A stretch of 56,189 nucleotides of DNA, taken from NCBI GenBank assembly GCA_963204995.1, contig CAUJKL010000933.1, forward strand, positions 1 to 56,189, written 5' to 3'. The position numbers and the translations under genes are program-made. This document shows, piece by piece, positions 2,746 to 44,624 of this stretch. Origin of the DNA: Planctomycetota bacterium. GTDB taxonomy: Bacteria; Planctomycetota; Planctomycetia; Pirellulales; Pirellulaceae. Every line of letters begins with the position of its first letter. Within the stretch, counting starts at the first letter, position 1. Under the pieces are notes generated by a model. It was not told where the DNA came from. It worked only from the letters and a program-made list of their open reading frames with translations, and searched no databases.

Positions 2746-2830
2746 GTCAACGCACTTTTCAGGCACCGTCGAAACCGCCTGATCGGCTTTGAAGAGTCAA
2801 GTTAGTCTTTACCATTGCATTGAGAATCCT

Positions 2831-3310
2831 ATGCTTGCTGAAATTCGTCGAAGCGTGAGCCTTCTGTTCTGCATGCTTGCGATCTTCGCCTGTTCTTGCA
2901 CGTCGAACACCTCCAGCAAAGCTTCGCTTGCTACCAATACCACCTCAGGGCCTGTCGATGCCGATGCCTCGACGGAGTTTACCGAGACCGAGTCGGGATT
3001 GAAGTACCGGATCTTGCGAAAGTCGGATGGCCCCAAACCCGTCGCTTCCGATACGGTGCTGGCACATTACGCCGGTTGGCTGGATGACGGTACGGAGTTC
3101 GACAGTTCGTATGCTCGTGGCAACCCCACGGACTTTCCGCTGCGCGGTGTGATTCCCGGCTGGACCGAAGGTTTACAGCTCATCGGCAAGGGAGGCATGA
3201 TCGAGTTGGAGATTCCATCCAAATTGGGTTACGGTCCCATGGGCATGCCGGGTGCGATTCCTCCCGACGCGACCTTGCATTTCAAAGTTGAGTTGATCGA
3301 CATTTTCTAA
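2831..3310 (+). CDS. FKBP-type peptidyl-prolyl cis-trans isomerase (lipoprotein or secreted)
   Basis: The C-terminal domain VLAHYAGWLDDGTEFDSSYARGNPTDFPLRGVIPGWTEGLQLIGKGGMIELEIPSKLGYG...IPPDATLHFKVELIDI is a canonical FKBP_C. ATG 2831 is preferred over the TTG at 2789. Confidence 0.9.
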   Translation: MLAEIRRSVSLLFCMLAIFACSCTSNTSSKASLATNTTSGPVDADASTEFTETESGLKYRILRKSDGPKPVASDTVLAHYAGWLDDGTEFDSSYARGNPTDFPLRGVIPGWTEGLQLIGKGGMIELEIPSKLGYGPMGMPGAIPPDATLHFKVELIDIF

Positions 3311-3645
3311 ATTGTGGGCACGCTTCCGCCATCGGCTATGTGAAGGATGCGGGAGTCGTGGCACTTCGTTGTCGTGGCTCCGTCGTTGATCATGTTGACA
3401 AATTGCAACATGGGAGTTGCTGAGAGGACGCGTTCGTGTCGCTGGGAGATAAGTGCGACGCGACTTAAGTTGTTGTCAGACCTCGACTCATGCGGCGACA
3501 TCACCGTCGTTGGCGCGCTTGGCATCGTGTTTGCTTCTACGATAGAGCCATGATGATTTTCTTCATCAACCCGCTCTCCGTCGCCGTTTCACGTTTTGTG
3601 ACACGGTCTCATCCAGCGGCGCGAGAATCAACCGAGGCTGTCGCC

Positions 3646-4284
3646 ATGAACAAACCGTGTAGCCTGATTCCCCTGTTTCTAATCGCTTGCTGGATCGGTC
3701 CCGCATCGGCCGGAGACTGGGTCACGGAACCTTCGTATTACACGCACGATCCCATGTCTGGCGAACGCGTCACCCAGTACACACCCATCGGGCCGTTCTA
3801 TACCTACGGCCAATCGAGCTTTACTCGTAGCGGCTATCGCAATACGCGGAGCAGTCTGCAAGTTGGCACTAGCGCCGATAACTACCACACGACGGAACAG
3901 TGGGGACCGCCAGTACAGCCTTATGGCGAATGGCGTTTCCCCTATCGTCCCTACTCGGTTCCTTATGGTCAGTGGGGACCGCAATTCTACGGCGGCGTTC
4001 CGTTTGGACTCTACCCGAGGGGATTCGGTGGTGGCTACGGGGGTGGCGGTTATGGCGGCGGGGGATATCCTGGCGTTGGATTTCCAGGCGGCGGAAATTT
4101 TCCGCCCGGCCAAGGCGGTATGCAGCAGCCACCGTATTCAGGGCCGAACCCGTTACAGCCTGGCTATAGTGGTCAACAACAATTGCTGGATGGTCGCTAT
4201 CCGCCGTTTGATAACCTCGGCCCGTTCGAGAAGAAGCAACTGTTCGATCACCTGTATCCGCCGCAGCCCGGTGTCGGGAATTGA
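3646..4284 (+). CDS. secreted Gly/Tyr/Pro-rich low-complexity protein
   Basis: Signal peptide MNKPCSLIPLFLIACWIGPASAGDW, followed by GGGYGGGGYGGGGYPGVGFPGGGNFPPGQGGMQQPPYSGPNPLQPGYSGQQQ. Start set at ATG 3646, inside the longer ORF-track frame. Confidence 0.65.
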   Translation: MNKPCSLIPLFLIACWIGPASAGDWVTEPSYYTHDPMSGERVTQYTPIGPFYTYGQSSFTRSGYRNTRSSLQVGTSADNYHTTEQWGPPVQPYGEWRFPYRPYSVPYGQWGPQFYGGVPFGLYPRGFGGGYGGGGYGGGGYPGVGFPGGGNFPPGQGGMQQPPYSGPNPLQPGYSGQQQLLDGRYPPFDNLGPFEKKQLFDHLYPPQPGVGN

Positions 4285-4480
4285 GAGTAGCCTCTCGGTG
4301 CCTAGGTATCTACTTGTTCACGACTCCACGACAAGTCTATATTCATGGCAATCTGCTGTTTGACTAAATTAGCCAGCTTGGTGCCCGCCACCCGTTGTTG
4401 AACAGTTCGCATCCCTCCTGAACCCGATCCGGCGACTTGTCGTCCGAGACCTGTTTACAACTGGCCCAAGAGCAACTGCC

Positions 4481-5524
4481 ATGATCCGCCAACGATTACT
4501 CTTCGTGACATTGTCGATGCTGGCAACATTCGCTGCGGCTCAGGAGGTGCCCGAAGCCACCCGCGAGTTCAGCATCCGGAACGACCGGGCTTTCCTGGAT
4601 GAGAACGAAGTCGAGCTGTGGGGACTGCGCTGCGGCAACGCCTTGCATAGTGAAGTGATCACCGAGCGGCACATCCGTAACCTCGATAACATGACCGCAC
4701 ACGGGATCAATACGATTGGCGTCTACATCCAGGGGAGCAACGCCGGCTGGCCGGATGCCAATGCCGCCGCGAACGGGTTCACACGCGACGGCAAGCTCAA
4801 GGCTCCCTTCGCAAAGCGGTTGGAAGCGATCGTTCGTGCAGCCGATCAACGCGGCATGGTGGTAATGGTCGGTCTGTTCACTCATCGCAAGGACCAAGAG
4901 TTCTATGACAACACGGCTATTCAGTCGGCCGTCGAAGGCGCGGCACGCTTCCTCAACGAGCGCAACTTGAAAAACGTGTTTGTCGACATCATCCACGAGT
5001 TCAGCCATCCAGAGAGGATGGATCAAGCGATCTTTCGCGAACCTGACGGCGAGGCGAAGAAGGCACAGCTCACGGGCTGGTTCAAGGCGGTCGCTCCGGA
5101 TATCGAGGTCGGTGTGTGTCCTGACATCAATTCCGGAACCGGCGATGTATATCCGGGCATGGATGTGCGGATGATCCAGAAGCAGATGCCGATTCCCACG
5201 CAGGGCTTTGTCGTCAACGTCGAGACGCTACGGCAGGATGTCTATCAAAACGACGGTATCTTCAGCCGGAGCAATATCGAGGACATCGTCGCCGATTGTC
5301 GCCGGTATCAAGCAGCTCCTAACGCCGCGATGCTCTTCCATGCGGCGTTCATTCAAGGCATCTCGAACTTTAGCGGCAGCGCCCCACATCCGGAGATGGG
5401 AGGCTACGGTACTGGGAGGGACGATCGCGGCGTGCGCTTCTATTACGACTGGGTCCGCGATCATATCGGCCGCTGGGAGTACCCTCGACATATTCCCGTG
5501 ACGGCAACTGGCGAGTCAAACTAG
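4481..5524 (+). CDS. secreted TIM-barrel glycosidase-like protein (GH5-like, tentative)
   Basis: Signal peptide LLFVTLSMLATFAAAQE. The layout HGINTIGVYIQG...RGMVVMVGLF...VFVDIIHEF resembles the GH5 beta4 strand and acid/base Glu, but NEP is replaced by HEF. Confidence 0.45.
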   Translation: MIRQRLLFVTLSMLATFAAAQEVPEATREFSIRNDRAFLDENEVELWGLRCGNALHSEVITERHIRNLDNMTAHGINTIGVYIQGSNAGWPDANAAANGFTRDGKLKAPFAKRLEAIVRAADQRGMVVMVGLFTHRKDQEFYDNTAIQSAVEGAARFLNERNLKNVFVDIIHEFSHPERMDQAIFREPDGEAKKAQLTGWFKAVAPDIEVGVCPDINSGTGDVYPGMDVRMIQKQMPIPTQGFVVNVETLRQDVYQNDGIFSRSNIEDIVADCRRYQAAPNAAMLFHAAFIQGISNFSGSAPHPEMGGYGTGRDDRGVRFYYDWVRDHIGRWEYPRHIPVTATGESN

Positions 5525-5554
5525 TTTCGAAACTAAACTCCAGCGAGGTTCGCG

Positions 5555-6583
5555 ATGTCCCACCGCCGAGCATTCACGCTTATCGAACTCCTGGTGGTGA
5601 TCGCCATCATCGGTATCCTCGTCGCGCTGCTGTTACCTGCGGTTCAAGCGGCTCGCGAAGCTGCACGTCGCACTCACTGCGCCAACAACCTAAAGCAACT
5701 TGGGTTGGCGGTACAGAACTACGAGCACACATTCGGAGCTCTGCCACCCGCGGCTTTCGTCCAAACCTTACCCAGCGGTTCGGTCTGGGTCAGCTACCTC
5801 GGACCACACGCCCGTATCCTGCCTTTCATCGAGCAGAACAATGTCTCCGGAGCCATGGACCTTGGTGCAGCCTATGGTAACCTCGCCAACAGTGCGGCGA
5901 CGGGTCGTGTCATTGACGGGTTCCTCTGTCCCAGCGAAGTCCGGCGCGAACCTCTGATCCACGCCGTCTTTGGGACCATCGGTGGTGTCAACTATGGCTT
6001 CTCCATGGGCGACTGGTTCGTGTGGAGCGGCATCAATAATCCGAGCGGACCGCAGACGCGCTCCGTCATCGGCATCAATCTCAGCCGCAAGTGGGCCGAT
6101 GTGATCGACGGCCTTTCGAATACCCTACTCATGTCCGAAGTCAAGAACTACCAGCCGACGGTTCGTGACTGCGCGGTGTTGGCGAACATTCAGGATCCCG
6201 ACAACATCCCCTCGCCAGACGCCGATCCGCTTGCAGTTTGCCCGGAGTATGCCGCTGGCGGATGCGCGTTCATCCAATCCGCCCACACGCAATGGGCTGA
6301 AATGTCGGTGCATCATAACGGCTTCACGACCGCTTGGACTCCGAATAAGAAGACACCGGGTGGCCCTGGGATGGCGTTCCCCGACGTCAATGTGTTGACG
6401 CGGCGCGAGCGGATTGGTGGACCAACCTACGGAGCGATCACTTCCCGAAGCTACCATCCAGGCGGCGTGCATGCCCTGCGCTGCGACGGCTCTGTTCGCT
6501 TTACAGCGGAAACAATTGACGGGCTGACTTGGCGAGCGCTCGGTACTATTGCTGGCGGCGAAGTCATCTCCAACGACCAATGA
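5555..6583 (+). CDS. DUF1559 family protein with prepilin-type N-terminal cleavage/methylation domain (H-X9-DG)
   Basis: [48 protein letters not shown] at the N-terminus; [18 protein letters not shown] at the C-terminus. Confidence 0.92.
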
Positions 6584-6605
6584 CGGTGCGTAAGGATCTG
6601 CCAAC

Positions 6606-6983
6606 ATGAAAGCATTGACATCTCTCGCACTGAACTTGGCGATCTACTTGGCCGTAGGGTGCAGCGCCCCTGCCCCGCCCCAATCAAACTACGATCCTCG
6701 AGACGCCCGCGACACGCTGATTACCGCGTTGGACGCCTGGCAGGCCGATACGCTGCAGCAGTTAGCTCAACAGCATCCGCCGCTACGTCTGTCGGATGAC
6801 GACTTGATCATGGGTGCGAAGTTGGAGAGTTATCAACTGAACCCCGATGCCACGTTTGCTCCGCATCAAGACGTGCAAGTCGACTTGGTCTTGAGAGATC
6901 GCCAAGGCACCACAATCAGTCGACGAGCCACGTATCAGATTGTGCTGGCACCCACGCGAGTAATCCTTCGCAACGACCCGTAG
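6606..6983 (+). CDS. small lipoprotein, unknown function
   Basis: Lipobox LAVGCS; lies 22 nt downstream of the DUF1559 gene and is followed by a terminator. Confidence 0.6.
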   Translation: MKALTSLALNLAIYLAVGCSAPAPPQSNYDPRDARDTLITALDAWQADTLQQLAQQHPPLRLSDDDLIMGAKLESYQLNPDATFAPHQDVQVDLVLRDRQGTTISRRATYQIVLAPTRVILRNDP

Positions 6984-33446: not shown

Positions 33447-35927
33447 ATGGCGAAGCAAATCAAACGCTGCTGGGGAATCGACATTGGACAATGCGCCATT
33501 AAAGCGCTTCGCTGCACACTGGAAGGCGATCAGATTGTCGCCGACGCGTTCGACTATATCGAGTATCCGAAGATTCTGAGCCAGCCGGAAGCCGAACCGG
33601 AGCTACTCATCAAGGAAGCACTCGAAACATTCTTGTCACGCAACGAGATTTCGCGACTTAACGACAAAGTCGCGATTTCCGTTCCCGGTCAAAGCGGCCT
33701 CGCAAAGTTCTTCAAGCCGCCTCCGGTCGACGTGAAACGCTTGCCGGACATCTGCCGCTTTGAAGCCAAGCAACAGATTCCGTTCCCGCTCGAGGAAGTT
33801 ATCTGGGACTTCCAACAACTTGCGGGCGGGCAAGTGATCGATGGCTTTGCAATCGATACGGAAGTGGGCCTGTTCGCGATGAAACGCGAGCAAGTGCATC
33901 GCGCACTGCGGCCCTTCGAGACCGCTGACATTCAGTTAGACATGGTCCAGCTGGCTCCGATTGCCATCTATAACTTCGTCTCGCACGACATCCTGACTGA
34001 TGGTCCTGACGAGGATATGTTTGACCCCGACGACCCGCCGGAGTCGATCGTCGTGCTCGCCATGGGAACCGATGCCACCGACTTAGTGGTGACCAACGGT
34101 TTTCGTATGTGGCAGCGCAGTATTCCGCTAGGCGGCAACCACTTCACCAAGCAGTTGACTAAGGAATTGAAGCTGACTTTCGCGAAGGCAGAGCATCTAA
34201 AACGCAACGCGCGACAAGCCGAAGACCCAAAGACTGTCTTCCAGGCGATGCGACCGATCTTTAATGATCTCGTCACGGAAGTACAGCGATCGATTGGCTT
34301 CTTTCAGGGCATCGATCGCAAGGCGAAGATTCGGGGCGTTGTGCTGCTTGGCAATACCGTCAAACTGCCTGGTTTACAGCAGTACATCTCGAAGAATCTC
34401 GGCTACGACGTACTTGAATTTGATTCGTTTAAGGAGCTGTCTGGCGCGTCGGTGATCGGTTCACCTCAGTTCTCCGAGAACGTGCTGGCCTACGGCGTGA
34501 GCTACGGCCTCTGTCTGCAAGGGCTCGGTAAATCACGCCTTTCGACCAGCCTCTTGCCTCGCGAGATCCTGACCAAGCGTGCAATCAAGGCAAAAAAGCC
34601 GTGGGCGGTCGCTTCGGTCGGGGCGTTGCTGCTGGCTTGCTCCTTCAATTTCTTCTTCCATTACAACATCGTGTCGAAGGTCAAGGCCGATTATCAACAA
34701 GGTGGCGTGGCGTGGAGTCAGGGCGAGTCGAAGATCACTCAGGTCAAGCAAACGAGTGATGGCTATGTAAGTGAACATGCCGTTAAAGAAGCTCAGCAGG
34801 CGTTTGTCCGCGAAATCGGCGAAGAGGTCGTAGGCTCGGGTGACCGGCGTCTGTTGTGGTTAGAGCTGATGACGGCGCTGAACAAATCGCTGCCCTGGCC
34901 TAAGGGAGTGCAACCGGGAGAATACGTCGACTACAAGACCTTGCCGATGGATGAACGCCCCGTTCTCTACATCGATTATATCGAGTCGGAATACTTTGCC
35001 GATTTAACAACGTGGTACACGGCCCGTGTTGCGAATAGCTATTTCGAGTTGACGAGGCACTTGAAGGCGAATCGCGAAGGTCGACAGCTAGAAGAGACGG
35101 AAACCGTTGAGTCGACAGAGAATCTTGACCAACTAGTCGCTGGAGCCGAAGCACTTCCCGGTCCAACAGGAGCTGGCTGGGTGATCGAGCTCAGTGGCCA
35201 CCACTATTTCAATAAGTCTCGGCAGTTTGGCAGCTTGAACCATATTCGCAATACGATTTTGAGGTTCCTTGAGGAAGGCAGCCTTAACTTGCCCATCAAT
35301 ACCCAAGGTGATCTCAGAACCTTTACGATGAAGGAACTTGGCATCTCGCATCCGATTCTGGCAGCGAACGGAGGCGAGCCTAAACCGGTTCGCGTTCCGA
35401 ACCCGGACGTCCAAGGCGCGGCAGCGAGCGTGGTGGCAGGCTCAGAGATGTATGGTGCCGGAGGTGGCGAGGGATATGCTGCTCCGGGAGGTGGTTTTGG
35501 TGCCCCGATGGCAGCGGGAGCACCAGTTGGTGGCCCCGCCGGCGCACCCGCCAAAGACGACGCAGAGGTGGTCCCTGCTTTTTTCGATGTCAAGGAAACA
35601 ACATTTACGATCCAATTCTGCTGGACGCCGAAAACGCTGAGTGAACGTCTGGCAGCCCAAGAAGAAGCGGCTCGCCTGAAAGCAGCGGCGGATGCCGAGG
35701 CAGCTGCTAATGCACCTCCGGTCACGGCTAACGATGGCGCTACCGAAAACGCAGCGCCAGCAGGTGCCGCACCCGCAGTGGCACCGGAAGGCGCAGCACC
35801 GGCGGAGGCTGCGCCGGTAAATCAAGTGCCAGCAGGTGCAGCCGAACCACCGGCAGGGGCAGCAGGTGTAGCCGAACCACCGGCAGGGGCAGCCGAGCCA
35901 GTAGGGGCCGTTGAGGCTGGAACATAA
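33447..35927 (+). CDS. pilM: PilM-type actin-like ATPase fused via a TM helix to a large periplasmic region (PilM-PilN/GspL-like topology)
   Basis: CWGIDIGQCAIKAL, ISVPGQSGLAKFF and RFEAKQQIPFPLEEVIWDFQ match PilM. TM helix WAVASVGALLLACSFNFFFHY at nt ~34602-34670. Then ~420 aa ending in G/M/Y and Ala/Pro/Glu low complexity. GGAG 8 nt upstream of the ATG. Confidence 0.8.
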   Translation: MAKQIKRCWGIDIGQCAIKALRCTLEGDQIVADAFDYIEYPKILSQPEAEPELLIKEALETFLSRNEISRLNDKVAISVPGQSGLAKFFKPPPVDVKRLPDICRFEAKQQIPFPLEEVIWDFQQLAGGQVIDGFAIDTEVGLFAMKREQVHRALRPFETADIQLDMVQLAPIAIYNFVSHDILTDGPDEDMFDPDDPPESIVVLAMGTDATDLVVTNGFRMWQRSIPLGGNHFTKQLTKELKLTFAKAEHLKRNARQAEDPKTVFQAMRPIFNDLVTEVQRSIGFFQGIDRKAKIRGVVLLGNTVKLPGLQQYISKNLGYDVLEFDSFKELSGASVIGSPQFSENVLAYGVSYGLCLQGLGKSRLSTSLLPREILTKRAIKAKKPWAVASVGALLLACSFNFFFHYNIVSKVKADYQQGGVAWSQGESKITQVKQTSDGYVSEHAVKEAQQAFVREIGEEVVGSGDRRLLWLELMTALNKSLPWPKGVQPGEYVDYKTLPMDERPVLYIDYIESEYFADLTTWYTARVANSYFELTRHLKANREGRQLEETETVESTENLDQLVAGAEALPGPTGAGWVIELSGHHYFNKSRQFGSLNHIRNTILRFLEEGSLNLPINTQGDLRTFTMKELGISHPILAANGGEPKPVRVPNPDVQGAAASVVAGSEMYGAGGGEGYAAPGGGFGAPMAAGAPVGGPAGAPAKDDAEVVPAFFDVKETTFTIQFCWTPKTLSERLAAQEEAARLKAAADAEAAANAPPVTANDGATENAAPAGAAPAVAPEGAAPAEAAPVNQVPAGAAEPPAGAAGVAEPPAGAAEPVGAVEAGT

Positions 35928-35938
35928 GGAACAGAATC

Positions 35939-37597
35939 GTGGATCAAGTAAAACAAGTACTCGCAGTCTTGAATACGCAGAAATTCTGGGTCACCTGCGG
36001 ATTTTTGACCCTGCTGCCGGTCGGCATTTGGTTTGTCGCCAAGTCTGCGCTCGACAAAGAATTCGAAGCGCGCAAGACCGCGATTACTACGGCCTATACG
36101 ACGGCAAAAAACATTGAGGGCATTCCTGATCACCCCAATCCGATTTCAGCGAAAGGGATGGACGAGAATCTCGGCAAGCTAAAAAAGAGCGTTTTTGATG
36201 CGTGGCAGGCACAGTACGAAGAGCAAAAACAGATTCTCGTCTGGCCCAAGGAGTTGCGACGCGATTTTATAGCCATGGTCGATCCGCTACGACCAATCGA
36301 GGAGAAAGTGACGTTTCCCACGCCTGCCGTTTATGAACTCCGACCTGAAATGCGCGAAGAATATCGCGACTACATTAAGGCCGAATTGCCTAAACTCGCG
36401 CAGATCATAGGCGCGCAATGGGGCAGCACTGCTCAGGTTGCTCAAGGTGACATGGCGGGAAGCGGAACTGGTGGATACGGTTCAGGCGGCGCGTCTCGTT
36501 CGGCCGCTGCGGAGAATGTCATTGTGCAATGGGACGCCAGCGACCAGTCGCGGTTGGTTTCACGCTTTGATTGGTCTCATACCTCCGACAAATTACCTCA
36601 AACCTTGGATATTCTTTATGCCCAAGAGGATCTCTGGATCCTGAATGCGGTCATGAACATCATCAAGCGGACGAATCGAGATGCTACAGCGAGCTATGAT
36701 GCGACAATCAAGGAGCTGAAATACGTACAGTTGGGGCAAGCGGTACGTGGAGCGGTTGGCAAGGTAACACGTTTGACTGGGGCGGCTGCGAGTGGCGGCG
36801 ACATGGGAGAAGGAGCGATGTACGGCAGCATGATGGACGGCAGCATGATGGACGCTGGCGCGATGGGTGGCGCAGGTGCAGATATGGGAAGTGGTGGCGC
36901 TATGGGCATGCCTGGCAGCGAGGGAATGGGTGCAACTGCCAGCAGAGACCCTGCCGATTTACGATACGTGGACAATAACTACGTTCCGCTCCCTGCAACT
37001 CGTGTTCGCACCGCGCTCAGCCCTGACGGCAAGAGCCCTGACGACGCCTTTTTGGTGGTGGCGAAGCGAGTGCCGATACGAATCGGCTTAACGATGGATC
37101 AACGGCGTATTCATCGCCTAGTGACTGAATGCGGCAACTCGACACTGATGGTGGAAGTTCGCCAAGTTCGTGTCAATCGCCAGTCGCCACCTACAGGCGG
37201 GGCTGGAGGTATCGGCTATGGTGGTGAGTCCGGTGGTGGATTTGGCGGTGGGTTCGGAGGTGGCGGCGGATTCGGCGGCGGATTTGGTGGCGGTGGATTT
37301 GGGAGTGGCGCTTCGGGTCCGGGAGGCGAAATGGGAGGAATGGGAATGGAAATGGAAATGGGGATGGGAAGCGGGTACGGAGGCGGAGCAGGTGCTACCG
37401 CATCGCTGAAGTCGAGCTATGACCTTCCCGTTGAACTCTATGGGATCATCTACATCTACAATCCTGTCGCCGAAAAGAAACTCGGTATCGAACTTAAAGA
37501 AGCGGATCCGGATGCCGCTCCGGCGGAGCCAGCGGCCCCCGAACCGGTTGCCGTTGAAAAGGCCGCCCCACAGGATATGGCCATGGCTGTTAATTAG
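35939..37597 (+). CDS. bitopic membrane protein with Gly/Met/Phe low-complexity tracts, unknown function (pilus/secretin cluster)
   Basis: GTG start 11 nt after the PilM stop (AAGGAA upstream). N-terminal TM FWVTCGFLTLLPVGIWFVA. LCRs at nt 36781-36935 and 37186-37400. Confidence 0.75.
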   Translation: MDQVKQVLAVLNTQKFWVTCGFLTLLPVGIWFVAKSALDKEFEARKTAITTAYTTAKNIEGIPDHPNPISAKGMDENLGKLKKSVFDAWQAQYEEQKQILVWPKELRRDFIAMVDPLRPIEEKVTFPTPAVYELRPEMREEYRDYIKAELPKLAQIIGAQWGSTAQVAQGDMAGSGTGGYGSGGASRSAAAENVIVQWDASDQSRLVSRFDWSHTSDKLPQTLDILYAQEDLWILNAVMNIIKRTNRDATASYDATIKELKYVQLGQAVRGAVGKVTRLTGAAASGGDMGEGAMYGSMMDGSMMDAGAMGGAGADMGSGGAMGMPGSEGMGATASRDPADLRYVDNNYVPLPATRVRTALSPDGKSPDDAFLVVAKRVPIRIGLTMDQRRIHRLVTECGNSTLMVEVRQVRVNRQSPPTGGAGGIGYGGESGGGFGGGFGGGGGFGGGFGGGGFGSGASGPGGEMGGMGMEMEMGMGSGYGGGAGATASLKSSYDLPVELYGIIYIYNPVAEKKLGIELKEADPDAAPAEPAAPEPVAVEKAAPQDMAMAVN

Positions 37598-37696
37598 TGC
37601 CGAAACGGATTTTACATATCCTGCCTGCTGGCGGAGATGTTATGCTGATGCAAGACGAGATCGACAGGGGATGGATCAAGTTTAGGAGCCAATGTA

Positions 37697-39922
37697 ATGG
37701 CAAAATTGAAACTCGATAAAGAATCACTGCAACGCTTTTTTTTCAATCACACCGAAAAAATCGTGCTCGCGGTCGTTATTCTGTTGCTCGGATTGTTTAT
37801 CTGGAGCGGTTCAAGTCTCGAAGGAATCGGTGCCCAAAATCCGGCGGAACTTGCCAGCAAAGTCGAGGCAGTTGCCAAGAAGATCGAGGCACCAACTTGG
37901 GACAATGTCAAAGAGAAATACGTCCCCGTGTTGGACCATGTTGGGCGTAAGCAAATTGGCGATGCCGCAACGTCGGAAAGCTACTATCGACTGGACACAC
38001 CCTTGATCGGCAGCCCGCCGAACTCCGCAACTCCTCGACAAGATCCAGAAATCTTTGCCGTCACCGACGTCGAGGCGACCGTTGTCACCGCGGCGATCGC
38101 GTTCAAAGCCCGACCGGGCTTGATCGACCCCTTTATGGATCTCGCGAATTTCGAACAGGAAAAGATTGAGGCTCCCAAGAAGAAGCCAAAGAAGAGTAAG
38201 AAGAACACAGCGGGTGGGAGTTATGGCGAAGAGATGGCGATGATGATGGAAGACGAGGCCATGGCGGGTGCCTCGGGTAGCATGATGAGCGAAGGTATGG
38301 GAGCGTACGGCTCAGGAGCGTACGGCGCAGGAGCGATGGGAGGTGTCCCAGCTGGCCCAACCGTCCGGGCAGACGCGAATAAATTCCACGGCTATCAACC
38401 CACGGCAACTTCAACCGCCACCGGTTCGTCCGTAATCGGCTATACCAAACACCTCGTTTCGGTGAGAGGGCTCGTGCCCTACCAACAACAATGGGACGAA
38501 TTCGAACGCGTGTTTGCCGACGCTGCCGGCTATATGCCATCGCGAGACATCCCCAAATACCTCTCGTTTCGGGCCCAGCGTGCGGAAGTCCCAAGCGATC
38601 CGAACGAACCCTTGAAATGGGGTTGGATCTCCTGGACAGCCGGGGTTCTTACCGATCTCCCGAAGAAGGGTTGGGCAGGTTTTCCTGGCGAAATCGCCGA
38701 TTCGAAGTATCTACTCCACGGCGTTTTGACGATGCCCGTGCCGCCGGTAATGATGCGTGACCTCCGACCGTTAGCCCTGCATTCGAAAGTGCCCATGCAA
38801 CTAGAGGAAAAGGTACAGGCGGTGGCACGAACGGGCCCTGAATTAGTCAACGTCGACGAGGTTGGCGGCGTGGCCGATATCGACGACTTGCCGCCCGTAC
38901 CGGGAGCCCGCCCAGGAGTTGGAGCGGGCGGTGCAGGTATGTACGGAAGTGACGGCGGCATGTATGGAAGTGGTGGCGGCATGTACGGAAGTGGCGGCGG
39001 CATGATGGGGATGACCGGAGAGGGCTACGGGGCAGGAATGGGGGGAATGGGGTACGACATGGGAATGGGTGGCACGGGTTTGCAACAAGTTCGCGGCCCG
39101 CAAGCCGAGTTCCTGATGGTCCGTTTCTTTGACGAGATCGCACCCGGCAAGAAGTACGTGTACCGAATTCAAGTTGTGTTAGAGGATCCCAATCATCCTC
39201 AATTCCCGCAGCAGGAGCCGCAGAGCCGCATTTTGGCCGACACCGTCCGCACACGGCTCGCCAACGTCGCGGCCGAAGAAGTCAAGCAAACGGCTGCTAA
39301 AAAGACGCCCATTCGGCTCTTCTCGTTGACCACGGAGTGGAGTGAACCTACCGCTCCGGTCTTCGTCAAGCCACAGTCGGAAATCTATGCGGGCGGTGTT
39401 ACGCTGCCGCTCATGCGTGATATTCTGCGTAGCACAGAACCCAATCAACTACAAAAAACTGGGTACACGCTTCCTGCGGACGGCGAGCCGACCGCCCAGG
39501 TCATGAACCTATCGTGGAGCTCGAAGTATGCAGTCGACATGCCTGGCATTTTGAAAGCGTCGAGAGGCTCCTTTCTCAACCAATCGATCGAAGCGGATGT
39601 TATTGATCCAGTCACGATGGTCTACAAGGTGGTTCCCGATTATAAGCTCTCATCGAACGAGCTCGTTATCGATCTCCGCGGCGGCGAGATCCTTCAACCG
39701 GCAGCGGGAGAGGTAAAAGCACTTTTGACGCCCGGTGAAGTCGCCGTCATCGACGCGCGTGGGAATTTCGTCGTTCGCAATGAATTGGACGACTGGCAGG
39801 CCTTTGATAAATACGCTCCTCCAGCCCCCCTTGTGGTCGAAGCAGCTCCGACCGCGAGCGACGGATACGGTGGCGAGACCATGGACTACGGGGCCTACGG
39901 TGCCGGTCCTAGCGGACCGTAG
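37697..39922 (+). CDS. bitopic membrane protein with Gly/Met/Tyr low-complexity tracts, unknown function (pilus/secretin cluster)
   Basis: AGGAG upstream of the ATG. N-terminal TM IVLAVVILLLGLFIWSG. KKKPKKSKKN patch, then LCRs at nt 38210-38344 and 38897-39078. Confidence 0.75.
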   Translation: MAKLKLDKESLQRFFFNHTEKIVLAVVILLLGLFIWSGSSLEGIGAQNPAELASKVEAVAKKIEAPTWDNVKEKYVPVLDHVGRKQIGDAATSESYYRLDTPLIGSPPNSATPRQDPEIFAVTDVEATVVTAAIAFKARPGLIDPFMDLANFEQEKIEAPKKKPKKSKKNTAGGSYGEEMAMMMEDEAMAGASGSMMSEGMGAYGSGAYGAGAMGGVPAGPTVRADANKFHGYQPTATSTATGSSVIGYTKHLVSVRGLVPYQQQWDEFERVFADAAGYMPSRDIPKYLSFRAQRAEVPSDPNEPLKWGWISWTAGVLTDLPKKGWAGFPGEIADSKYLLHGVLTMPVPPVMMRDLRPLALHSKVPMQLEEKVQAVARTGPELVNVDEVGGVADIDDLPPVPGARPGVGAGGAGMYGSDGGMYGSGGGMYGSGGGMMGMTGEGYGAGMGGMGYDMGMGGTGLQQVRGPQAEFLMVRFFDEIAPGKKYVYRIQVVLEDPNHPQFPQQEPQSRILADTVRTRLANVAAEEVKQTAAKKTPIRLFSLTTEWSEPTAPVFVKPQSEIYAGGVTLPLMRDILRSTEPNQLQKTGYTLPADGEPTAQVMNLSWSSKYAVDMPGILKASRGSFLNQSIEADVIDPVTMVYKVVPDYKLSSNELVIDLRGGEILQPAAGEVKALLTPGEVAVIDARGNFVVRNELDDWQAFDKYAPPAPLVVEAAPTASDGYGGETMDYGAYGAGPSGP

Positions 39923-39985
39923 AGTTGCTAGCCCGCCACGAGAGCCCGCTCGGCGCGCGATCACGAACTTGACCAGCACGCACAG

Positions 39986-40016
39986 CTCCATTCGTTCATC
40001 GAATGGAGTTTTTTTT
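39986..40016 (+). terminator. rho-independent terminator
   Basis: CTCCATTCG-ttcat-CGAATGGAG followed by TTTTTTTT. Confidence 0.9.
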
Positions 40017-40305: not shown

Positions 40306-43300
40306 TTGAAAGCGATCTGTAAGGTTTCGTTCGGATGCATCGCCTTGGCGATCACACTGCCACCAGCCGCATTCGCAGAAAGCCATTCCGTGATCACAGC
40401 GATCGCCAACGCGAATGCCGCGTTCGGCCAAACCGCTTCCGCCGATGAAGCCGCTCGCCGCCGCGAGGCGGACCAGTGGTTACGGCAAGCACGCCAGGCG
40501 CTGGAGGACGGCAAGCCGGATGTCGCCGAGTACTGCGTCGACCGCGCCGAAAAGTTCAACGCCAGTTTTGACTCGGTACTGTCACGATTCGCCGACACAC
40601 CAGCCAAAGTGCGACGCGACATCGACGCCGCACGCGGTTCTGGTCCCACTCGGCCGCAAGTGCCAAGCCAACAGTTTGCTCCAGGGTCGCCACCCGCCAA
40701 CGGTTTGTCGACAACTGCAACGGGCAACGCGGCACCCGGAAAGGACCAGGTGCTGAATCAAATGACAAACACTGGCAAGGCACAAGCCAGCGATTACCTT
40801 CAACGAGGCCGTCAAGCTCTGCAGCAAGGTGACAAGACGGCAGCCCTGTCGTGGTATCAACGCGCGGTTGCGACAGGTGCTTCGTTCGCGCCAGGCGAGT
40901 TCTCTCCCGTCCATTTTGCATCGGAGCTGCAACGGGCCGGAGTTGATATCAGCCGCATCGCGCAGCTCCAACCTGCCCCCGCGTTCGCCACCAATCCAGC
41001 GGACTTTGCTCCGCGCGAGCTGGATCGTCTGCCGGCAATTAAGCCAATGCCCTCGAACGCCGATAGCGCTTTCGAAGGAGGCCTTGTCACCAACCCGACA
41101 CAACTTGCCGGCGGTTCGCAATTCGGCAATGCCGCGCCAGCGAGTCCTCAAAAGTTGGCAGCGATGCGATTACTTGCCCAAGCTCAAGCCGCTTTGGGAC
41201 GTGGCGATTTGCGTGCGGCCAACGAATTCGCCGAACAAGCCCAAGCGATTCGAGTTCCAGAGCAGGAGTTCTCACAGGGAGAAACGCGACCTTGGGAGTT
41301 GCTGCTCCAGATTCGCAGTCAGTTGAATCGTCAGGGAGGTTCCGGTGTCATCCCCGCCGGGAATTTCGAAACGGTTCCTGAGATGGCCAATGGCGGTGCT
41401 CAGCCAAATCGTTCGCCGATTAGCCAAGGAATCTACACACCAGAATCAGACTCGACTCGCAATCGTTACGCGCAAGCCGAGATCCCCACGCCTGCTCTTC
41501 GTCCTGCCGATAGTTCGGCTGGATTGCAGATCTATCGTGAGGGGTTGCGAGCGTTGGAAGCTCAAGATCGTGATGAAGCCCTACGGTTATTTCGCAATGC
41601 GTGGCAGTATCAACAAGAATTCGATCCGCTCACACGACAAGACTTGAAGGACAAGCTCAGCCTGTTGAGCGCGGCTGGAAATCGTCCGCTTCGTGAACCG
41701 TCGCCCTTAGAAGAAGTCAACGCACAGCAAGAGTTACTCCGCCAACAACTGTTCCGCGAGATCTCCAACGAAACCAAAGAAGCCGAACAAATGGTGCAAT
41801 CGGACCCTCGGGGAGCGTTGCAGCGCGTCACGAAACTTCGCGAACGTGTGTCGCAAGCCGAAGTTGATCCAGGTGCGAGACGCCAGCTCCTGACCATCGT
41901 CGATCAAGAAGTTGCAAGCATCGAAGCATACATCCGACAGAACGAGGGTGACATCGTTTTGAAGGAGCGAAATCGCCAAGTCGTCGACTCGATCGATCGC
42001 GATCGTGCCGCAAAAATCGACGTGCAACAGAAAGTTGCTCAGTTGGTCGAGGAGTTCAATGACTTGCTCGACCAAGAACGACATGCGGAGGCAGAAGTCC
42101 GCGCTCGCCAAATCCGCGAACTCGATCCCGAGTCGCCTGTCACACGCTTGGTGACGATGAAGAGCAAGTTCGCCAGTCGTATGCAACGGAACCAATGGAT
42201 CGCCGACCAGAAGGAAGACGGGTTTGTCAAGAATATGCAAGACACGGACGCGGCTTCGATTGCGACGGTCGGCGACGACCATCCGATCGACTTCGGCGAC
42301 AAAACTCGTTGGGATCAGCTGTCGCGAACCCGTCTCGAACAACTCGAAATGCAGCAACGACGTCTTTCGCCGGTTGAGATGGAAATTCAAAACACGCTGA
42401 AGAAACCTGTTGACGTTAATTTCAACAATCGGCCTTTGAAAGAAGTGCTCGATACCCTCGCCAGCATTTCCGGAGTCAATATCTACGCCGATCCACAAGG
42501 GCTCGCGGCAGAGGGAGTTACGAGCGATACGCCCGTAAACATCACGTTGACTCAGGCCATCTCGTTACAAAGTGCCCTGAATCTGATTCTCGAACCGCTG
42601 CGTCTGAGCTACGTCATCCAAAACGAAGTGCTTCGGATCACGAGCGAACAACTACGCGACTCGAATGTCAAACCGCAGGTCTACAACGTGGCAGACCTGG
42701 TCATTCCGATCCCGAACTTCATTCCCGGCTACAACGTTGGGCTCCCGTCTGCGATCCGAGAAGCTCACACTGCTCTCGGATATGGCGGTGTTGCACCGTC
42801 GGTATCAATGGCTCCATTGACGGTGGCGTCCAACGACATGCAAGGCGGTGGTCCAGCGAGCGCTTCGGCACTCGCGCAAATGAGTACCTATGGCGGCCTT
42901 CCACAGGGGAGCAGGTCACGCCCTTCGCAACCGTTGGGTTATGGTGCCGGCAGCATGGGCGGAGCCGCATTGGCTGACTTTGATACGCTCATTCAATTGA
43001 TTACATCAACGATCAAGCCGGACACCTGGGACGAAGTGGGTGGCCCCGGTGCGATCGAGCCGTTTCCCACGAACTTGAGCTTGGTCATTAGTCAGACACA
43101 GGATGTTCACGAGCAGATCGCGGACCTCCTCGAACAGCTCCGGCGCTTGCAGGACTTGCAAGTGACGATCGAAGTCCGCTTCATCACTCTGCGTGACGAC
43201 TTCTTCGAGCGAATTGGCGTCGACTTCGACTTCGATGTCGACGACAACGTCACCACCTTGCCTCCAGACGATTCGGGACCGAGTGTTGCTATCGGCTTGA

Positions 43301-44112
43301 CGCCAACGGGAGTCCCGACGGCCGACTTCGACTATTCGTTCACCCAAGATAGCTTCAGCCTTACCACTCCGGCATTCGGAGGATTTGGAACCGGTGCAGG
43401 AGCCGCGAACTTTGGTTTTGCGATCCTGAGCGACATCGAAGCATTTTTCCTCGTCCAAGCGGCCACCGGAAGTAATCGCAGCAATGTGTTGGCTGCCCCG
43501 AAGGTCACGCTGTTCAACGGTCAGCAGGCGTCTGTCAGTGACGTTTCGCAACGCCCGTTCGTGACCAGCTTGATCCCGGTCGTCGGCGACTTTGCCGCCG
43601 CCCAACAGCCGGTGATCGTAGTCCTCAGCGAAGGGACTTCCCTCGGCGTCCAAGCCGTCGTCTCTTCCGATCGCCGATTTGTCAGACTGACGCTGGTTCC
43701 ATTCTTCAGCCAGATCGGTGAAGTCGAGGAGTTTACTTTCGACGGAACTACGACGACAAACACGGGCTCGAACGTCGTCGATGCAACCGGCAAACCGACC
43801 GGCGACAAAGACAATACGATAACTACGACGCAAGGCACGACAGTTCAGCTGCCCACCTTCTCCTTCACGACCGTATCGACGACCGTGAGTGTACCGGATG
43901 GCGGAACGGTTTTGCTGGGCGGCATCAAACGCCTGTCCGAAGAACGCAAGGAACAAGGCGTGCCGATGCTGAACAAGATTCCGTACGTCAACCGGCTGTT
44001 CAAGAACGTAGGTATCGGTCGAGCGACAACCAGCCTGATGCTGATGGTGACGCCTCGAATCATCATTCAGGAGGAAGAGGAAGAGAAAATGGGCATCGAG
44101 ATCATTCCATAA
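40306..44112 (+). CDS. secretin (PilQ/GspD family) with ~700-aa N-terminal helical-repeat and coiled-coil extension
   Basis: TTG start 8 nt after AAGGAG. Signal peptide ...LPPAAFAESH. STN/N0-like KKPVDVNFNNRPLKEVLDTLASISGVNIYADP. C-terminal secretin core SVPDGGTVLLGGIKRLSEERKEQGVPMLNKIPYVNRLFKN...MLMVTPRII. Confidence 0.9.
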   Translation: MKAICKVSFGCIALAITLPPAAFAESHSVITAIANANAAFGQTASADEAARRREADQWLRQARQALEDGKPDVAEYCVDRAEKFNASFDSVLSRFADTPAKVRRDIDAARGSGPTRPQVPSQQFAPGSPPANGLSTTATGNAAPGKDQVLNQMTNTGKAQASDYLQRGRQALQQGDKTAALSWYQRAVATGASFAPGEFSPVHFASELQRAGVDISRIAQLQPAPAFATNPADFAPRELDRLPAIKPMPSNADSAFEGGLVTNPTQLAGGSQFGNAAPASPQKLAAMRLLAQAQAALGRGDLRAANEFAEQAQAIRVPEQEFSQGETRPWELLLQIRSQLNRQGGSGVIPAGNFETVPEMANGGAQPNRSPISQGIYTPESDSTRNRYAQAEIPTPALRPADSSAGLQIYREGLRALEAQDRDEALRLFRNAWQYQQEFDPLTRQDLKDKLSLLSAAGNRPLREPSPLEEVNAQQELLRQQLFREISNETKEAEQMVQSDPRGALQRVTKLRERVSQAEVDPGARRQLLTIVDQEVASIEAYIRQNEGDIVLKERNRQVVDSIDRDRAAKIDVQQKVAQLVEEFNDLLDQERHAEAEVRARQIRELDPESPVTRLVTMKSKFASRMQRNQWIADQKEDGFVKNMQDTDAASIATVGDDHPIDFGDKTRWDQLSRTRLEQLEMQQRRLSPVEMEIQNTLKKPVDVNFNNRPLKEVLDTLASISGVNIYADPQGLAAEGVTSDTPVNITLTQAISLQSALNLILEPLRLSYVIQNEVLRITSEQLRDSNVKPQVYNVADLVIPIPNFIPGYNVGLPSAIREAHTALGYGGVAPSVSMAPLTVASNDMQGGGPASASALAQMSTYGGLPQGSRSRPSQPLGYGAGSMGGAALADFDTLIQLITSTIKPDTWDEVGGPGAIEPFPTNLSLVISQTQDVHEQIADLLEQLRRLQDLQVTIEVRFITLRDDFFERIGVDFDFDVDDNVTTLPPDDSGPSVAIGLTPTGVPTADFDYSFTQDSFSLTTPAFGGFGTGAGAANFGFAILSDIEAFFLVQAATGSNRSNVLAAPKVTLFNGQQASVSDVSQRPFVTSLIPVVGDFAAAQQPVIVVLSEGTSLGVQAVVSSDRRFVRLTLVPFFSQIGEVEEFTFDGTTTTNTGSNVVDATGKPTGDKDNTITTTQGTTVQLPTFSFTTVSTTVSVPDGGTVLLGGIKRLSEERKEQGVPMLNKIPYVNRLFKNVGIGRATTSLMLMVTPRIIIQEEEEEKMGIEIIP

Positions 44113-44140: not shown

Positions 44141-44170
44141 AGCCCGTTGCTCACGCGACGGGCTTTTTTT
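44141..44170 (+). terminator. rho-independent terminator
   Basis: AGCCCGT-(10 nt)-ACGGGCT followed by TTTTTTT. Confidence 0.8.
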
Positions 44171-44210: not shown

Positions 44211-44624
44211 GTGAAAGATCGACATATCCTGTTTGTTGGAGGTGTTCTCGGTGGACTCGGCGTTGCACTAGGCGCGTTCGGAGCACACTGGCTTGAAGGA
44301 GCCATTAAGCAGTGGGGACTTGAACCGGTCGAAGAGCTCAAACGCCTCAACACATGGGAAGTCGCAGTGCGTTATCAGATGTATCACGCCCTGGCGTTAC
44401 TGGCACTCGGGTCGCTTGCGACGCGACTTCCTGAACGGAGTAAGGTTTGGTCCGCACGCCTATTCATCGTTGGCACCTGCGTTTTTAGCGGCTGCTTATA
44501 TGTACTGGTCCTTTCGGGCGTCAAAGTCCTTGGTGCCGTCGTCCCACTTGGTGGAAGCTGTCTCATCGGTGGGTGGCTAGTGCTGGCAATCGCGGCGCTT
44601 CGGTGCTCCGACTCGCACTGCTGA
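44211..44624 (+). CDS. DUF423 (YgdD/TMEM256-like) membrane protein
   Basis: 137 aa with four hydrophobic helices. GGVLGGLGVALGAFGAHWL and YQMYHALALL are the family hallmarks. GTG start. Confidence 0.8.
   Translation: MKDRHILFVGGVLGGLGVALGAFGAHWLEGAIKQWGLEPVEELKRLNTWEVAVRYQMYHALALLALGSLATRLPERSKVWSARLFIVGTCVFSGCLYVLVLSGVKVLGAVVPLGGSCLIGGWLVLAIAALRCSDSHC

Follow-up and report, generated by a model that had tools for sequence, protein, structure and literature searches.

In the analysed window, the whole stretch of 56,189 nucleotides from a Planctomycetota bacterium of the Pirellulaceae (assembly GCA_963204995.1, contig CAUJKL010000933.1), a secretin gene was identified whose product carries about 700 residues of modular, helical sequence ahead of its N0 domain. 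The gene is located at 40306..44112 on the plus strand, starts with TTG and specifies a protein of 1268 aa. Its N-terminal region is very probably built of separate modules, linkers between them and a helical cassette that leads into N0. A wider statement, that the protein is a secretin resembling those of type IVa pili (T4aP) and that the extension provides a flexible tether with docking functions, goes beyond the structural description to a function, and its chances are considered even.

With residues 1-720 as query, 62 proteins were obtained at E<=1e-3, nearly all of them 1200-1450 aa long and equipped with a secretin domain; among them is a homologue from Pirellula staleyi DSM 6068 with 39% identity. 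A family alignment of 44 sequences was assembled from the window protein and 43 of these 62 homologues, the other 19 being members of the window's own cluster, fragments, hits of partial coverage or near-duplicates. The pattern MKAI.K.S.GC.AL...A.A is common to the N-termini of the homologues, and a signal peptide is predicted for aa 1-24 (40306..40377, +), with cleavage placed by eye after AFA and with similar N-termini in homologues. The homologue L009, 82% identical, has a TTG start as well. In comparison with it, each N-terminal segment for which the ratio of nonsynonymous to synonymous substitution rates (dN/dS) is defined, the linkers among them, showed a value of 0.08-0.28. One segment, the module R4 described below, has no defined ratio because synonymous sites are saturated there, and the other values are rough since synonymous sites are near saturation.

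If the start were located near N0, the 700 upstream codons would be untranslated and the extension an annotation artefact. The TTG start codon and the absence of any Pfam domain from the region could be taken as signs of this. They are set against an AGGAG sequence about 8 nt upstream of the TTG, a signal-peptide-like N-terminus kept in homologues, the dN/dS values, high confidence for the modules in AlphaFold2 (AF2) models, and an open frame with matches to the hidden Markov model (HMM) of the module across 80 loci, the best of 596 relatives. The artefact is almost certainly not the explanation, and a true start far downstream, near the STN domain, which the sequence-only reading had named as the result that would overturn it, is effectively excluded. 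To judge from these sequence comparisons, the N-terminal 700 aa are genuine, conserved and translated, and the non-canonical extension ahead of N0 proposed in that reading is upheld.

Within the signal peptide a Gly-Cys pair is present at aa 10-11 (window 40333-40338), which was found in 19/44 family members. The window N-terminus, S-F-G-C at positions 8-11, does not fit the lipobox [LVI][ASTVI][GAS]C, and a lipobox-like motif was detected in 7/44 family sequences. From these counts, a lipoprotein reading of the pair was rejected as a family feature.

Four copies of a helical hairpin had been proposed for the extension. The corresponding segments were located at aa 61-84, 167-194, 291-315 and 411-439 (nt 40486-40557, 40804-40887, 41176-41250 and 41536-41622), close to the approximate positions first given. 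The strict form of the shared motif occurs three times where 0.001 occurrences are expected (20000 shuffles) and a looser form four times where 0.03 are expected, counts that are biased because the motif was written after the sequence had been seen. In pairwise comparisons of profiles drawn from the 44-sequence alignment (hhalign), R1, R2 and R3 matched each other with E values of 1e-11 to 1e-13 and probabilities of 97-98%. Against the full-length profile, R1-R3 were recovered at 95-96% and everything else in the protein at <=24%, R4 being the next-best match in these scans (3-24%). Applying deeper profiles, of 222 R-type instances and 70 R4 instances from related loci, R4 reached 89% (E 2.3e-6) over a 40-column hairpin. 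The HMMs of R1, R2 and R3 also match each other's positions in homologues. Three of the four proposed repeats are thereby confirmed; the fourth is only a diverged relative.

In the AF2 models, each unit is a module of about 60-70 aa with three helices and a predicted local distance difference test score (pLDDT) of 85-94. R1 (aa 44-112, 40435..40641, +; module-profile E 6.4e-18) is a three-helix unit around one TPR-like hairpin (TPR, tetratricopeptide repeat), with helices at 44-67, 71-83 and 99-111 and a pLDDT of about 89. R2 (aa 150-212, 40753..40941, +) and R3 (aa 278-346, 41137..41343, +) were delimited by hhalign, AF2 and the module profile, and R4 (aa 402-460, 41509..41685, +) is an MIT-like three-helix unit. 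The consensus of the 222 instances reads A..LL.qAR.AL..GD...A..la.qA..L.V.Y.p..DtP.kv. In the plan of a module, one TPR-like hairpin comes first, then a conserved loop (V-x-Y ... D-T/S-P) and lastly a helix that caps the unit. Across the organism's own genome, the module profile found the three modules of this protein and one weak site elsewhere. The latter, at L095/L097 (G000:C547) 5764-5889 on the minus strand, has an E value of 1.7e-6 and is contained in an open frame of 1568 aa.

The resemblance to TPRs was assessed with a profile of 75 modules. In consensus TPR proteins, every one of the 34-residue repeats is matched in register by positions 12-44 of this profile and contributes about 12 bits; it is by summing over repeats that whole sequences of such proteins obtain very low E values. 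For natural TPR proteins (kinesin light chain-like, Sti1/HOP, OGT and BcsC), E values were 3e-6 to 1e-2. Single modules stay below Pfam gathering scores, the best match being R2 to TPR_2 (E 0.0057, 17.1 bits vs 27), and at E<=0.1 DUF1771 was matched by 22/75 modules, TPR_2 by 13/75 and TPR_16 by 11/75. In a Foldseek search of the PDB with an AF2 model of 720 aa, no match reached E<=0.001. The weak rows consist of TPR proteins, for which TM on the query is 0.06-0.10, and TPR proteins, mostly from Verrucomicrobiota and Planctomycetota, are also the Atlas feature neighbours of the N-terminus; both are leads only. R3 was superposed on a TPR piece of STUB1 (VIA Z 8.1, root mean square deviation (rmsd) 3.0 Å, 61 aligned), a generic match. 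The same holds for R4 and MIT domains (VIA Z 8-8.9, rmsd about 2 Å, 57-59 aligned), scores in the range that small helical bundles reach in general. R4 lies on 4a5x_B with Z 8.9, rmsd 2.0 Å and 59 aligned residues, and it is like MIT domains and 1.5-TPR three-helix units in this respect; the Pfam MIT match to it is weak (E 0.076) and an ESCRT-type context is missing, so that the likeness is one of resemblance only. Sequence and profile searches, including one with the profile of the whole protein family, revealed no solved relative of the N-terminus. R4 also shows a weak NCBIfam match (window 41527-41619, aa 408-438; E 0.004, 15.7 bits vs 300) to FlcA, by its family name a periplasmic flagellar collar protein.

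Pilotins of the PilF/PilW/Tgl type and TadD are separate lipoproteins with several contiguous TPRs. They share with the window protein TPR-type helical hairpins tied to secretin biogenesis; unlike theirs, the units found here are in cis, solitary, variable in number and without a lipobox. The modules could nevertheless act as a built-in pilotin or assembly chaperone, working in cis like these proteins or like BamD-like domains and helping the secretin to reach the outer membrane and assemble there. Their TPR-like character would suit such a role, and no separate pilotin gene was evident beside the secretin in Pfam and NCBIfam scans of the neighbours. Among the weak Foldseek rows, BamD of Rhodothermus (3qky) has the top probability (0.97, E 0.027, TMt 0.20), but its superposition is very poor, with an rmsd of 19.3 Å over 246 columns. 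A published precedent, for whose TPR N-terminus such a role has been suggested, is PilQ of Akkermansia muciniphila (Amuc_1098, 907 aa), with reported outer-membrane localisation and a BamD-like domain at residues 71-239 that contains three TPRs, an N-terminal domain 'resembling the pilotin proteins' (PMC4960237). In a 2026 paper on Amuc_1098 the terms TPR, secretin and N-terminal are absent. Both proteins are secretins from PVC bacteria (Planctomycetes, Verrucomicrobia and Chlamydiae) with a helical, TPR-type N-terminus instead of AMIN and with a PilM-like neighbour, in Akkermansia within the Amuc_1098-1102 cluster. In the window protein, by contrast, the TPR-like units are solitary with disordered linkers between them, a helical block of about 190 aa follows, and the length is 1268 vs 907 aa. 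The two were set apart by the family model NF042912 and the published description; the N-terminal 700 aa gave no match to NF042912 at E<=10.

The arrangement of the modules also differs from that of a pilotin. The hairpins of the window protein are 106-125 residues apart, with a pLDDT of <50 in the linkers, and they form solitary units joined by disordered segments instead of adjoining repeats in a groove-bearing TPR superhelix. Their number, which varies from 1 to 13 in the family, would be odd for a chaperone site, and a lipobox is missing from the window protein and, as mentioned above, from most homologues. A pilotin-like role in cis is therefore regarded as improbable. What is supported is a variant, specific to this lineage, of the helical-repeat secretins known from related PVC bacteria. 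As the general idea of a PVC secretin with helical repeats at its N-terminus has been published for Akkermansia, the surprise is moderate. A description of the planctomycete extension was not found in literature on planctomycete secretins and type IV pili, a search outside which most subscription journals lie. For Planctopirus, a genetic study mentions three dispensable pilQ-like genes, without a word on their architecture (PMC11958385).

The modules are separated by the linkers L1 (aa 113-149, 40642..40752, +), L2 (aa 213-277, 40942..41136, +) and L3 (aa 347-401, 41344..41508, +), with lengths of 37, 65 and 55 aa. For most of their residues pLDDT is <50, in L3 on either side of a short conserved motif, and P/G/S/T/Q/N account for 43-68% of the residues (68% in L1). 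They are Pro/Gly/Gln/Ala-rich and predicted to be disordered, L2 for most of its length. In homologues, linker lengths range from 14 to 102 aa (L1), from 11 to 245 aa (L2) and from 42 to 105 aa (L3), and extra modules are inserted in the N-terminal part. Identity is lower in linkers than in modules; for L1, identity to the window sequence is 0.21 and dN/dS 0.23. The motif in L3, QGxYxPxxDxTRN, occupies aa 374-386 (nt 41425-41463); G375 and D382 are kept in at least 90% of the 44 sequences, and the consensus is PVxQGVYxPxxDxTRN. Set in an otherwise disordered linker, it is a candidate docking peptide. The predicted template modelling score (pTM) of the 720-aa model is 0.30, so that no confident packing between modules is indicated.

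R4 is followed by a helical block composed of HB1 (aa 466-546, 41701..41943, +) and HB2 (aa 547-652, 41944..42261, +). Residues 466-652 are all-helical with pLDDT >90 in two independent AF2 models, and six helices of 14-43 residues were distinguished, at 467-499, 501-517, 522-545, 547-589, 593-606 and 611-650, the last three making up HB2. HB2 is exactly 106 aa long in all 43 aligned homologues, and HB1 has a median of 81 aa (range 81-90). By a weak match to the repeat profile, HB2 holds a cryptic TPR-like hairpin at about aa 579-607; weak matches were also obtained in two relatives with many modules, P0104 and P0172, at a position of the helical block that is presumed equivalent without residue mapping. 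Between the block and N0 a pre-N0 segment is located (aa 653-700, 42262..42405, +), with two helices and the conserved residues W669 and E691.

About 250 heptad-like residues in this part of the protein had been interpreted as a long coiled coil, which might form an inter-subunit stalk spacing the pore from the inner membrane. The region is indeed rich in charged residues and both AF2 models show it as helix throughout, and in a heptad scan the 95% shuffle threshold per window is passed by two windows of 28 residues. The helices are, however, broken at Pro/Gly near residues 500, 520, 546, 590 and 608, and the longest has 43 residues. Residues 472-547 fold back in the model as a three-helix bundle and superpose on such bundles over 62-76 residues (VIA Z 8.7-10.6, rmsd 1.6-2.7 Å). 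The maximum of a heptad a/d scan, a crude in-house procedure and not COILS or Marcoil, was 0.65 compared with a shuffle-maximum mean of 0.55 and a 95th percentile of 0.70, and is within the shuffle range. A long continuous coiled coil is accordingly not supported, and a stalk of this kind is very unlikely.

The N0 domain, of STN type, was assigned to aa 701-790 (42406..42675, +), in agreement with the STN/N0 domain expected at about 42400. The assignment was made by fold, with a Foldseek probability of 1.00 and an rmsd of 2.0-3.3 Å to N0 of PilQ and GspD (2.0 Å over 80 residues). The structures matched are 4av2_A/4ar0 (Neisseria PilQ N0) and 4jtm and 3ezj (GspD N0), and VIA Z is 8-9.9. The Pfam STN match is sub-threshold (aa 746-778, E 0.007, 16.6 bits vs 28.4). 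Downstream of N0, a Gly-rich linker (aa 791-889, 42676..42972, +; 74-117 aa in homologues) leads to a conserved block before the pore (aa 890-965, 42973..43200, +), presumed to be a ring-building N domain and showing an identity of 0.83 to homologues. The pore domain itself is located at aa 1056-1253 (43471..44064, +; PF00263 Secretin, E 5.9e-23, 81.7 bits vs a gathering cut-off of 27.5). In the PDB, solved chains of PilQ, GspD, pIV and InvG were matched by the family profile.

Canonical PilQ of T4aP consists of AMIN, N0, N1 and the secretin domain, and GspD of type II secretion systems of N0-N3 and the secretin domain. The window protein is like them in its C-terminal secretin domain, the N0 fold, a block before the pore that can be aligned with GspD, and a pilM neighbour. 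It differs in having about 700 aa of unrelated helical sequence before N0. AMIN and Secretin_N (PF03958) were not detected in the secretin with Pfam at E<=0.01, nor an AMIN family in the N-terminal 720 aa even at E<=10, and the absence of canonical AMIN or N1-N3 domains from this place had been correctly anticipated. NCBIfam secretin models (GspD, PilQ, MshL, the Amuc_1098 family and SctC) gave C-terminal matches only, far under their cut-offs. TIGR02515 (T4aP PilQ) scored 91.2 bits with a cut-off of 284.35, and TIGR02517 (GspD) 92.3 bits with a cut-off of 351.35; the alignment of the latter, aa 848-1261 to profile positions 279-598, takes in the block at aa 890-965. NF042912, the Amuc_1098 family, scored 63.3 bits vs 750 and covered only profile positions 665-796 of 805. 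The residues before N0 are covered neither by a model of Pfam or NCBIfam nor by a solved structure.

Other secretins of the same genome show ordinary STN or Secretin_N architectures: six Secretin_N domains in one case, STN in another and a Tad-type pilus_N. The protein with six Secretin_N domains is a second giant secretin frame of 1286 aa, located at L089 (G000:C613) 2824-6681 on the plus strand, and represents a different route to a longer periplasmic part in the same genome. An odd pairing was noticed at L090 (G000:C244) 3-2663 on the plus strand, where a 5'-open frame of 887 aa contains secretin fragments at aa 101-207 and a TolC-like OEP at aa 736-834.

With the full-length alignment as query, 596 of 635 pattern matches in species-representative genomes were found to encode relatives. 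The titles of the best 80 loci name Pirellulaceae, Thermoguttaceae, Lacipirellulaceae, Anatilimnocola, Bremerella, Blastopirellula and Anammoximicrobium, and otherwise higher ranks or no taxon. Of the 2731 cluster representatives that an exhaustive search with a profile of R3 to pre-N0 yielded at E<=1e-3, 1590 have E<=1e-10 and 622 have E<=1e-30; those listed individually are the best 150 of the 2731, all with E<1e-103. When 301 Planctomycetota genomes were sampled evenly, the same profile was matched at E<=1e-10 in 18: the organism's own genome, 1/1 other genome of its family, 15/15 of a second family of the same class and, weakly, one elsewhere. In the genomes sampled, the family is confined to one planctomycete lineage, and all named relatives are Pirellulales.

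Scans with segment HMMs revealed a constant core, R4-HB1-HB2-pre-N0-N-SEC, preceded by a variable count of R-type modules. Among 60 complete-looking open reading frames (ORFs), defined as not 5'-open and at least 1150 codons from stop to stop (20/80 were excluded), one R-type copy is present in 3, two in 11, three in 14, four in 22 and five in 10, and R4 in 57/60. More modules are contained in P0172 and P0196, eight and seven, respectively, and the maximum of thirteen is reached in P0104. In many-module members of this type, Pfam recognizes the secretin domain only.

A second class of matches was observed in the same genomes: frames of 780-1080 aa which match the HB1-to-pre-N0 part only. Three such frames were examined and specify exported VWA-domain proteins (PF13768) without secretin domain, L096 (G000:C543) 3980-5962 (+), L098 6290-9058 (-) and L099 4953-7289 (+). 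The first, from the organism's own genome, is cut by the contig end; the other two are full-length and from other genomes. The copy of 922 aa opens with a signal peptide and VWA, continues with a middle region and a TPR-like hairpin, and closes with HB1-HB2-pre-N0 and then a tail rich in Gly/Gln; its residues 443-787 are collinear with residues 467-802 of the secretin (27% identity, E 2e-29). The HMM order HB1-HB2-pre-N0 was found in both full-length copies, and HB1-HB2 in the partial one. A cassette common to the secretin and the VWA protein indicates that the helical block and N0 are an evolutionary unit distinct from the array of modules. It is a long shot that this cassette is portable in a functional sense as well, in that the VWA protein would dock or insert under the N0 ring of the secretin, giving a hetero-oligomeric base whose VWA head, of adhesin type, would lie in the periplasm, and that the number of modules (1 to 13) would set the reach of an elastic tether from the outer-membrane pore to the inner membrane, the distance of which changes in planctomycetes.

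The secretin gene adjoins genes for a PilM-like protein and for the two bitopic proteins noted from the sequence. The PilM-like protein (33447..35927, +) is 826 aa long and contains a membrane segment as well as a tail of low complexity; it reaches 133.8 bits with TIGR01175 pilM (cut-off 133) and an E value of 2.7e-30 with Pfam PilM_2, and its best NCBIfam E value is to Amuc_1101_fam (2.2e-49, 168.8 bits vs a cut-off of 650). It resembles a PilM fused to a membrane-anchored periplasmic part. The bitopic proteins of 552 aa (35939..37597, +) and 741 aa (37697..39922, +) are Gly/Met-rich and without family match in Pfam and NCBIfam. Long Gly/Met/Ala-rich stretches of low complexity are present in all three proteins (window 33447-39922), which suggests that every periplasmic component of the cluster is enlarged. 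Between the gene for the 741-aa protein and the secretin gene, a terminator-like hairpin is located at 39984..40010 (+), in which a stem of 11 pairs is followed by the T-run TTTTTTATTG. A second such hairpin with a T-run, of 10 pairs including 7 G-C, is found 3' of the secretin gene at 44141..44164 (+). As these strong hairpins are present on both sides, the secretin may constitute a transcription unit of its own, separate from the pilM-like cluster. Further downstream a gene for a DUF423 membrane protein is located (44211-44624), which follows the secretin in 32/80 related loci. The outlying genes of the window are unrelated planctomycete genes (DUF1501, PSCyt/PSD, a glycoside-hydrolase-like protein and a transposase-type nuclease).

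For the proposed function, the protein would be the outer-membrane secretin of a pilM-linked, T4aP-like machine. Its periplasmic region of about 700 residues would combine the variable module array with a constant, length-invariant cassette, R4-HB1-HB2-pre-N0-N0. The cassette, if rigid, could extend the periplasmic base of the secretin beneath the N0 ring, while the array, like beads on a string, would be a flexible and extensible tether and at the same time a multivalent docking scaffold. By these means the pore might find and hold periplasmic and inner-membrane partners across the wide and variable periplasm of planctomycetes, and the extension would stand in for the AMIN or N1-N3 domains of canonical secretins. 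A periplasm-spanning spacer and a docking site for the 552- and 741-aa proteins had been put forward from the sequence alone as possible roles.

The modules and blocks might instead associate laterally with their 12-15 counterparts and form stacked periplasmic rings, adding tiers or gates below N0. In favour of this, secretins oligomerize as rings, the lengths of the helical blocks are strictly conserved and their pLDDT is high, and the near-contiguous array of P0104 would suit a long structured tube or solenoid. There is also a precedent in PilQ of Thermus thermophilus, whose domains N0-N5 are reported to build a channel of about 35 nm in length that crosses a wide periplasm (PMC4463427). It is likewise a type IV pilus secretin greatly lengthened on the periplasmic side, and this was read as an adaptation to a wide periplasm (PMC4463427). 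Its extension, however, consists of ring-building beta/alpha domains that form a rigid channel, whereas that of the window protein is all-helical with linkers predicted to be disordered. Helical modules do not have the beta-alpha-beta-beta-alpha fold from which such rings are built, and the linkers of 37-65 aa are predicted to be disordered. Additional rings are judged unlikely.

The flexible tether and docking scaffold, the preferred reading, has to be weighed against several observations. A TPR hairpin that stands alone cannot build a binding groove of the usual kind, which takes several repeats. In P0104, a protein of 2088 aa, the 13 modules follow each other with a period of about 70 aa almost without linkers, which shows that the family does not depend on long linkers. 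In a set of 48 related loci, each with 6.5 kb or more of sequence upstream of the secretin, the PilM-like, 552-like and 741-like genes are located there in 26/48 and missing in 22/48, which weakens a reading of this cluster as an obligate partner. In 16 syntenic loci, the length of the extension showed Spearman rho values of -0.01, 0.21 and -0.16 with the lengths of the PilM-like, 552-like and 741-like proteins; there is hence no sign of all components scaling together. VIA-wide searches with both models yielded only generic helical-bundle matches for the extension with Z<=10.6, and these matches (Z 8-10.6) lie under the noise level of about 13 that the tool itself gives for helical folds. Finally, the AF2 models were judged by secondary structure, pLDDT and superposition tables only. 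All these points count against the proposed function.

Secretins serve pili and secretion systems as gates in the outer membrane, and their periplasmic parts decide anchoring, gating and coupling to the inner-membrane motor. The periplasm of planctomycetes, which envelope machines have to bridge, is enlarged and irregular. The secretin described here offers a testable design, with a helical base that would be rigid, single TPR-like units of variable copy number and a pore-less paralogue with the same base. It also contributes two sequence modules for which neither a Pfam or NCBIfam model nor a solved structure exists, and which may lead to better annotation of hundreds of planctomycete proteins.

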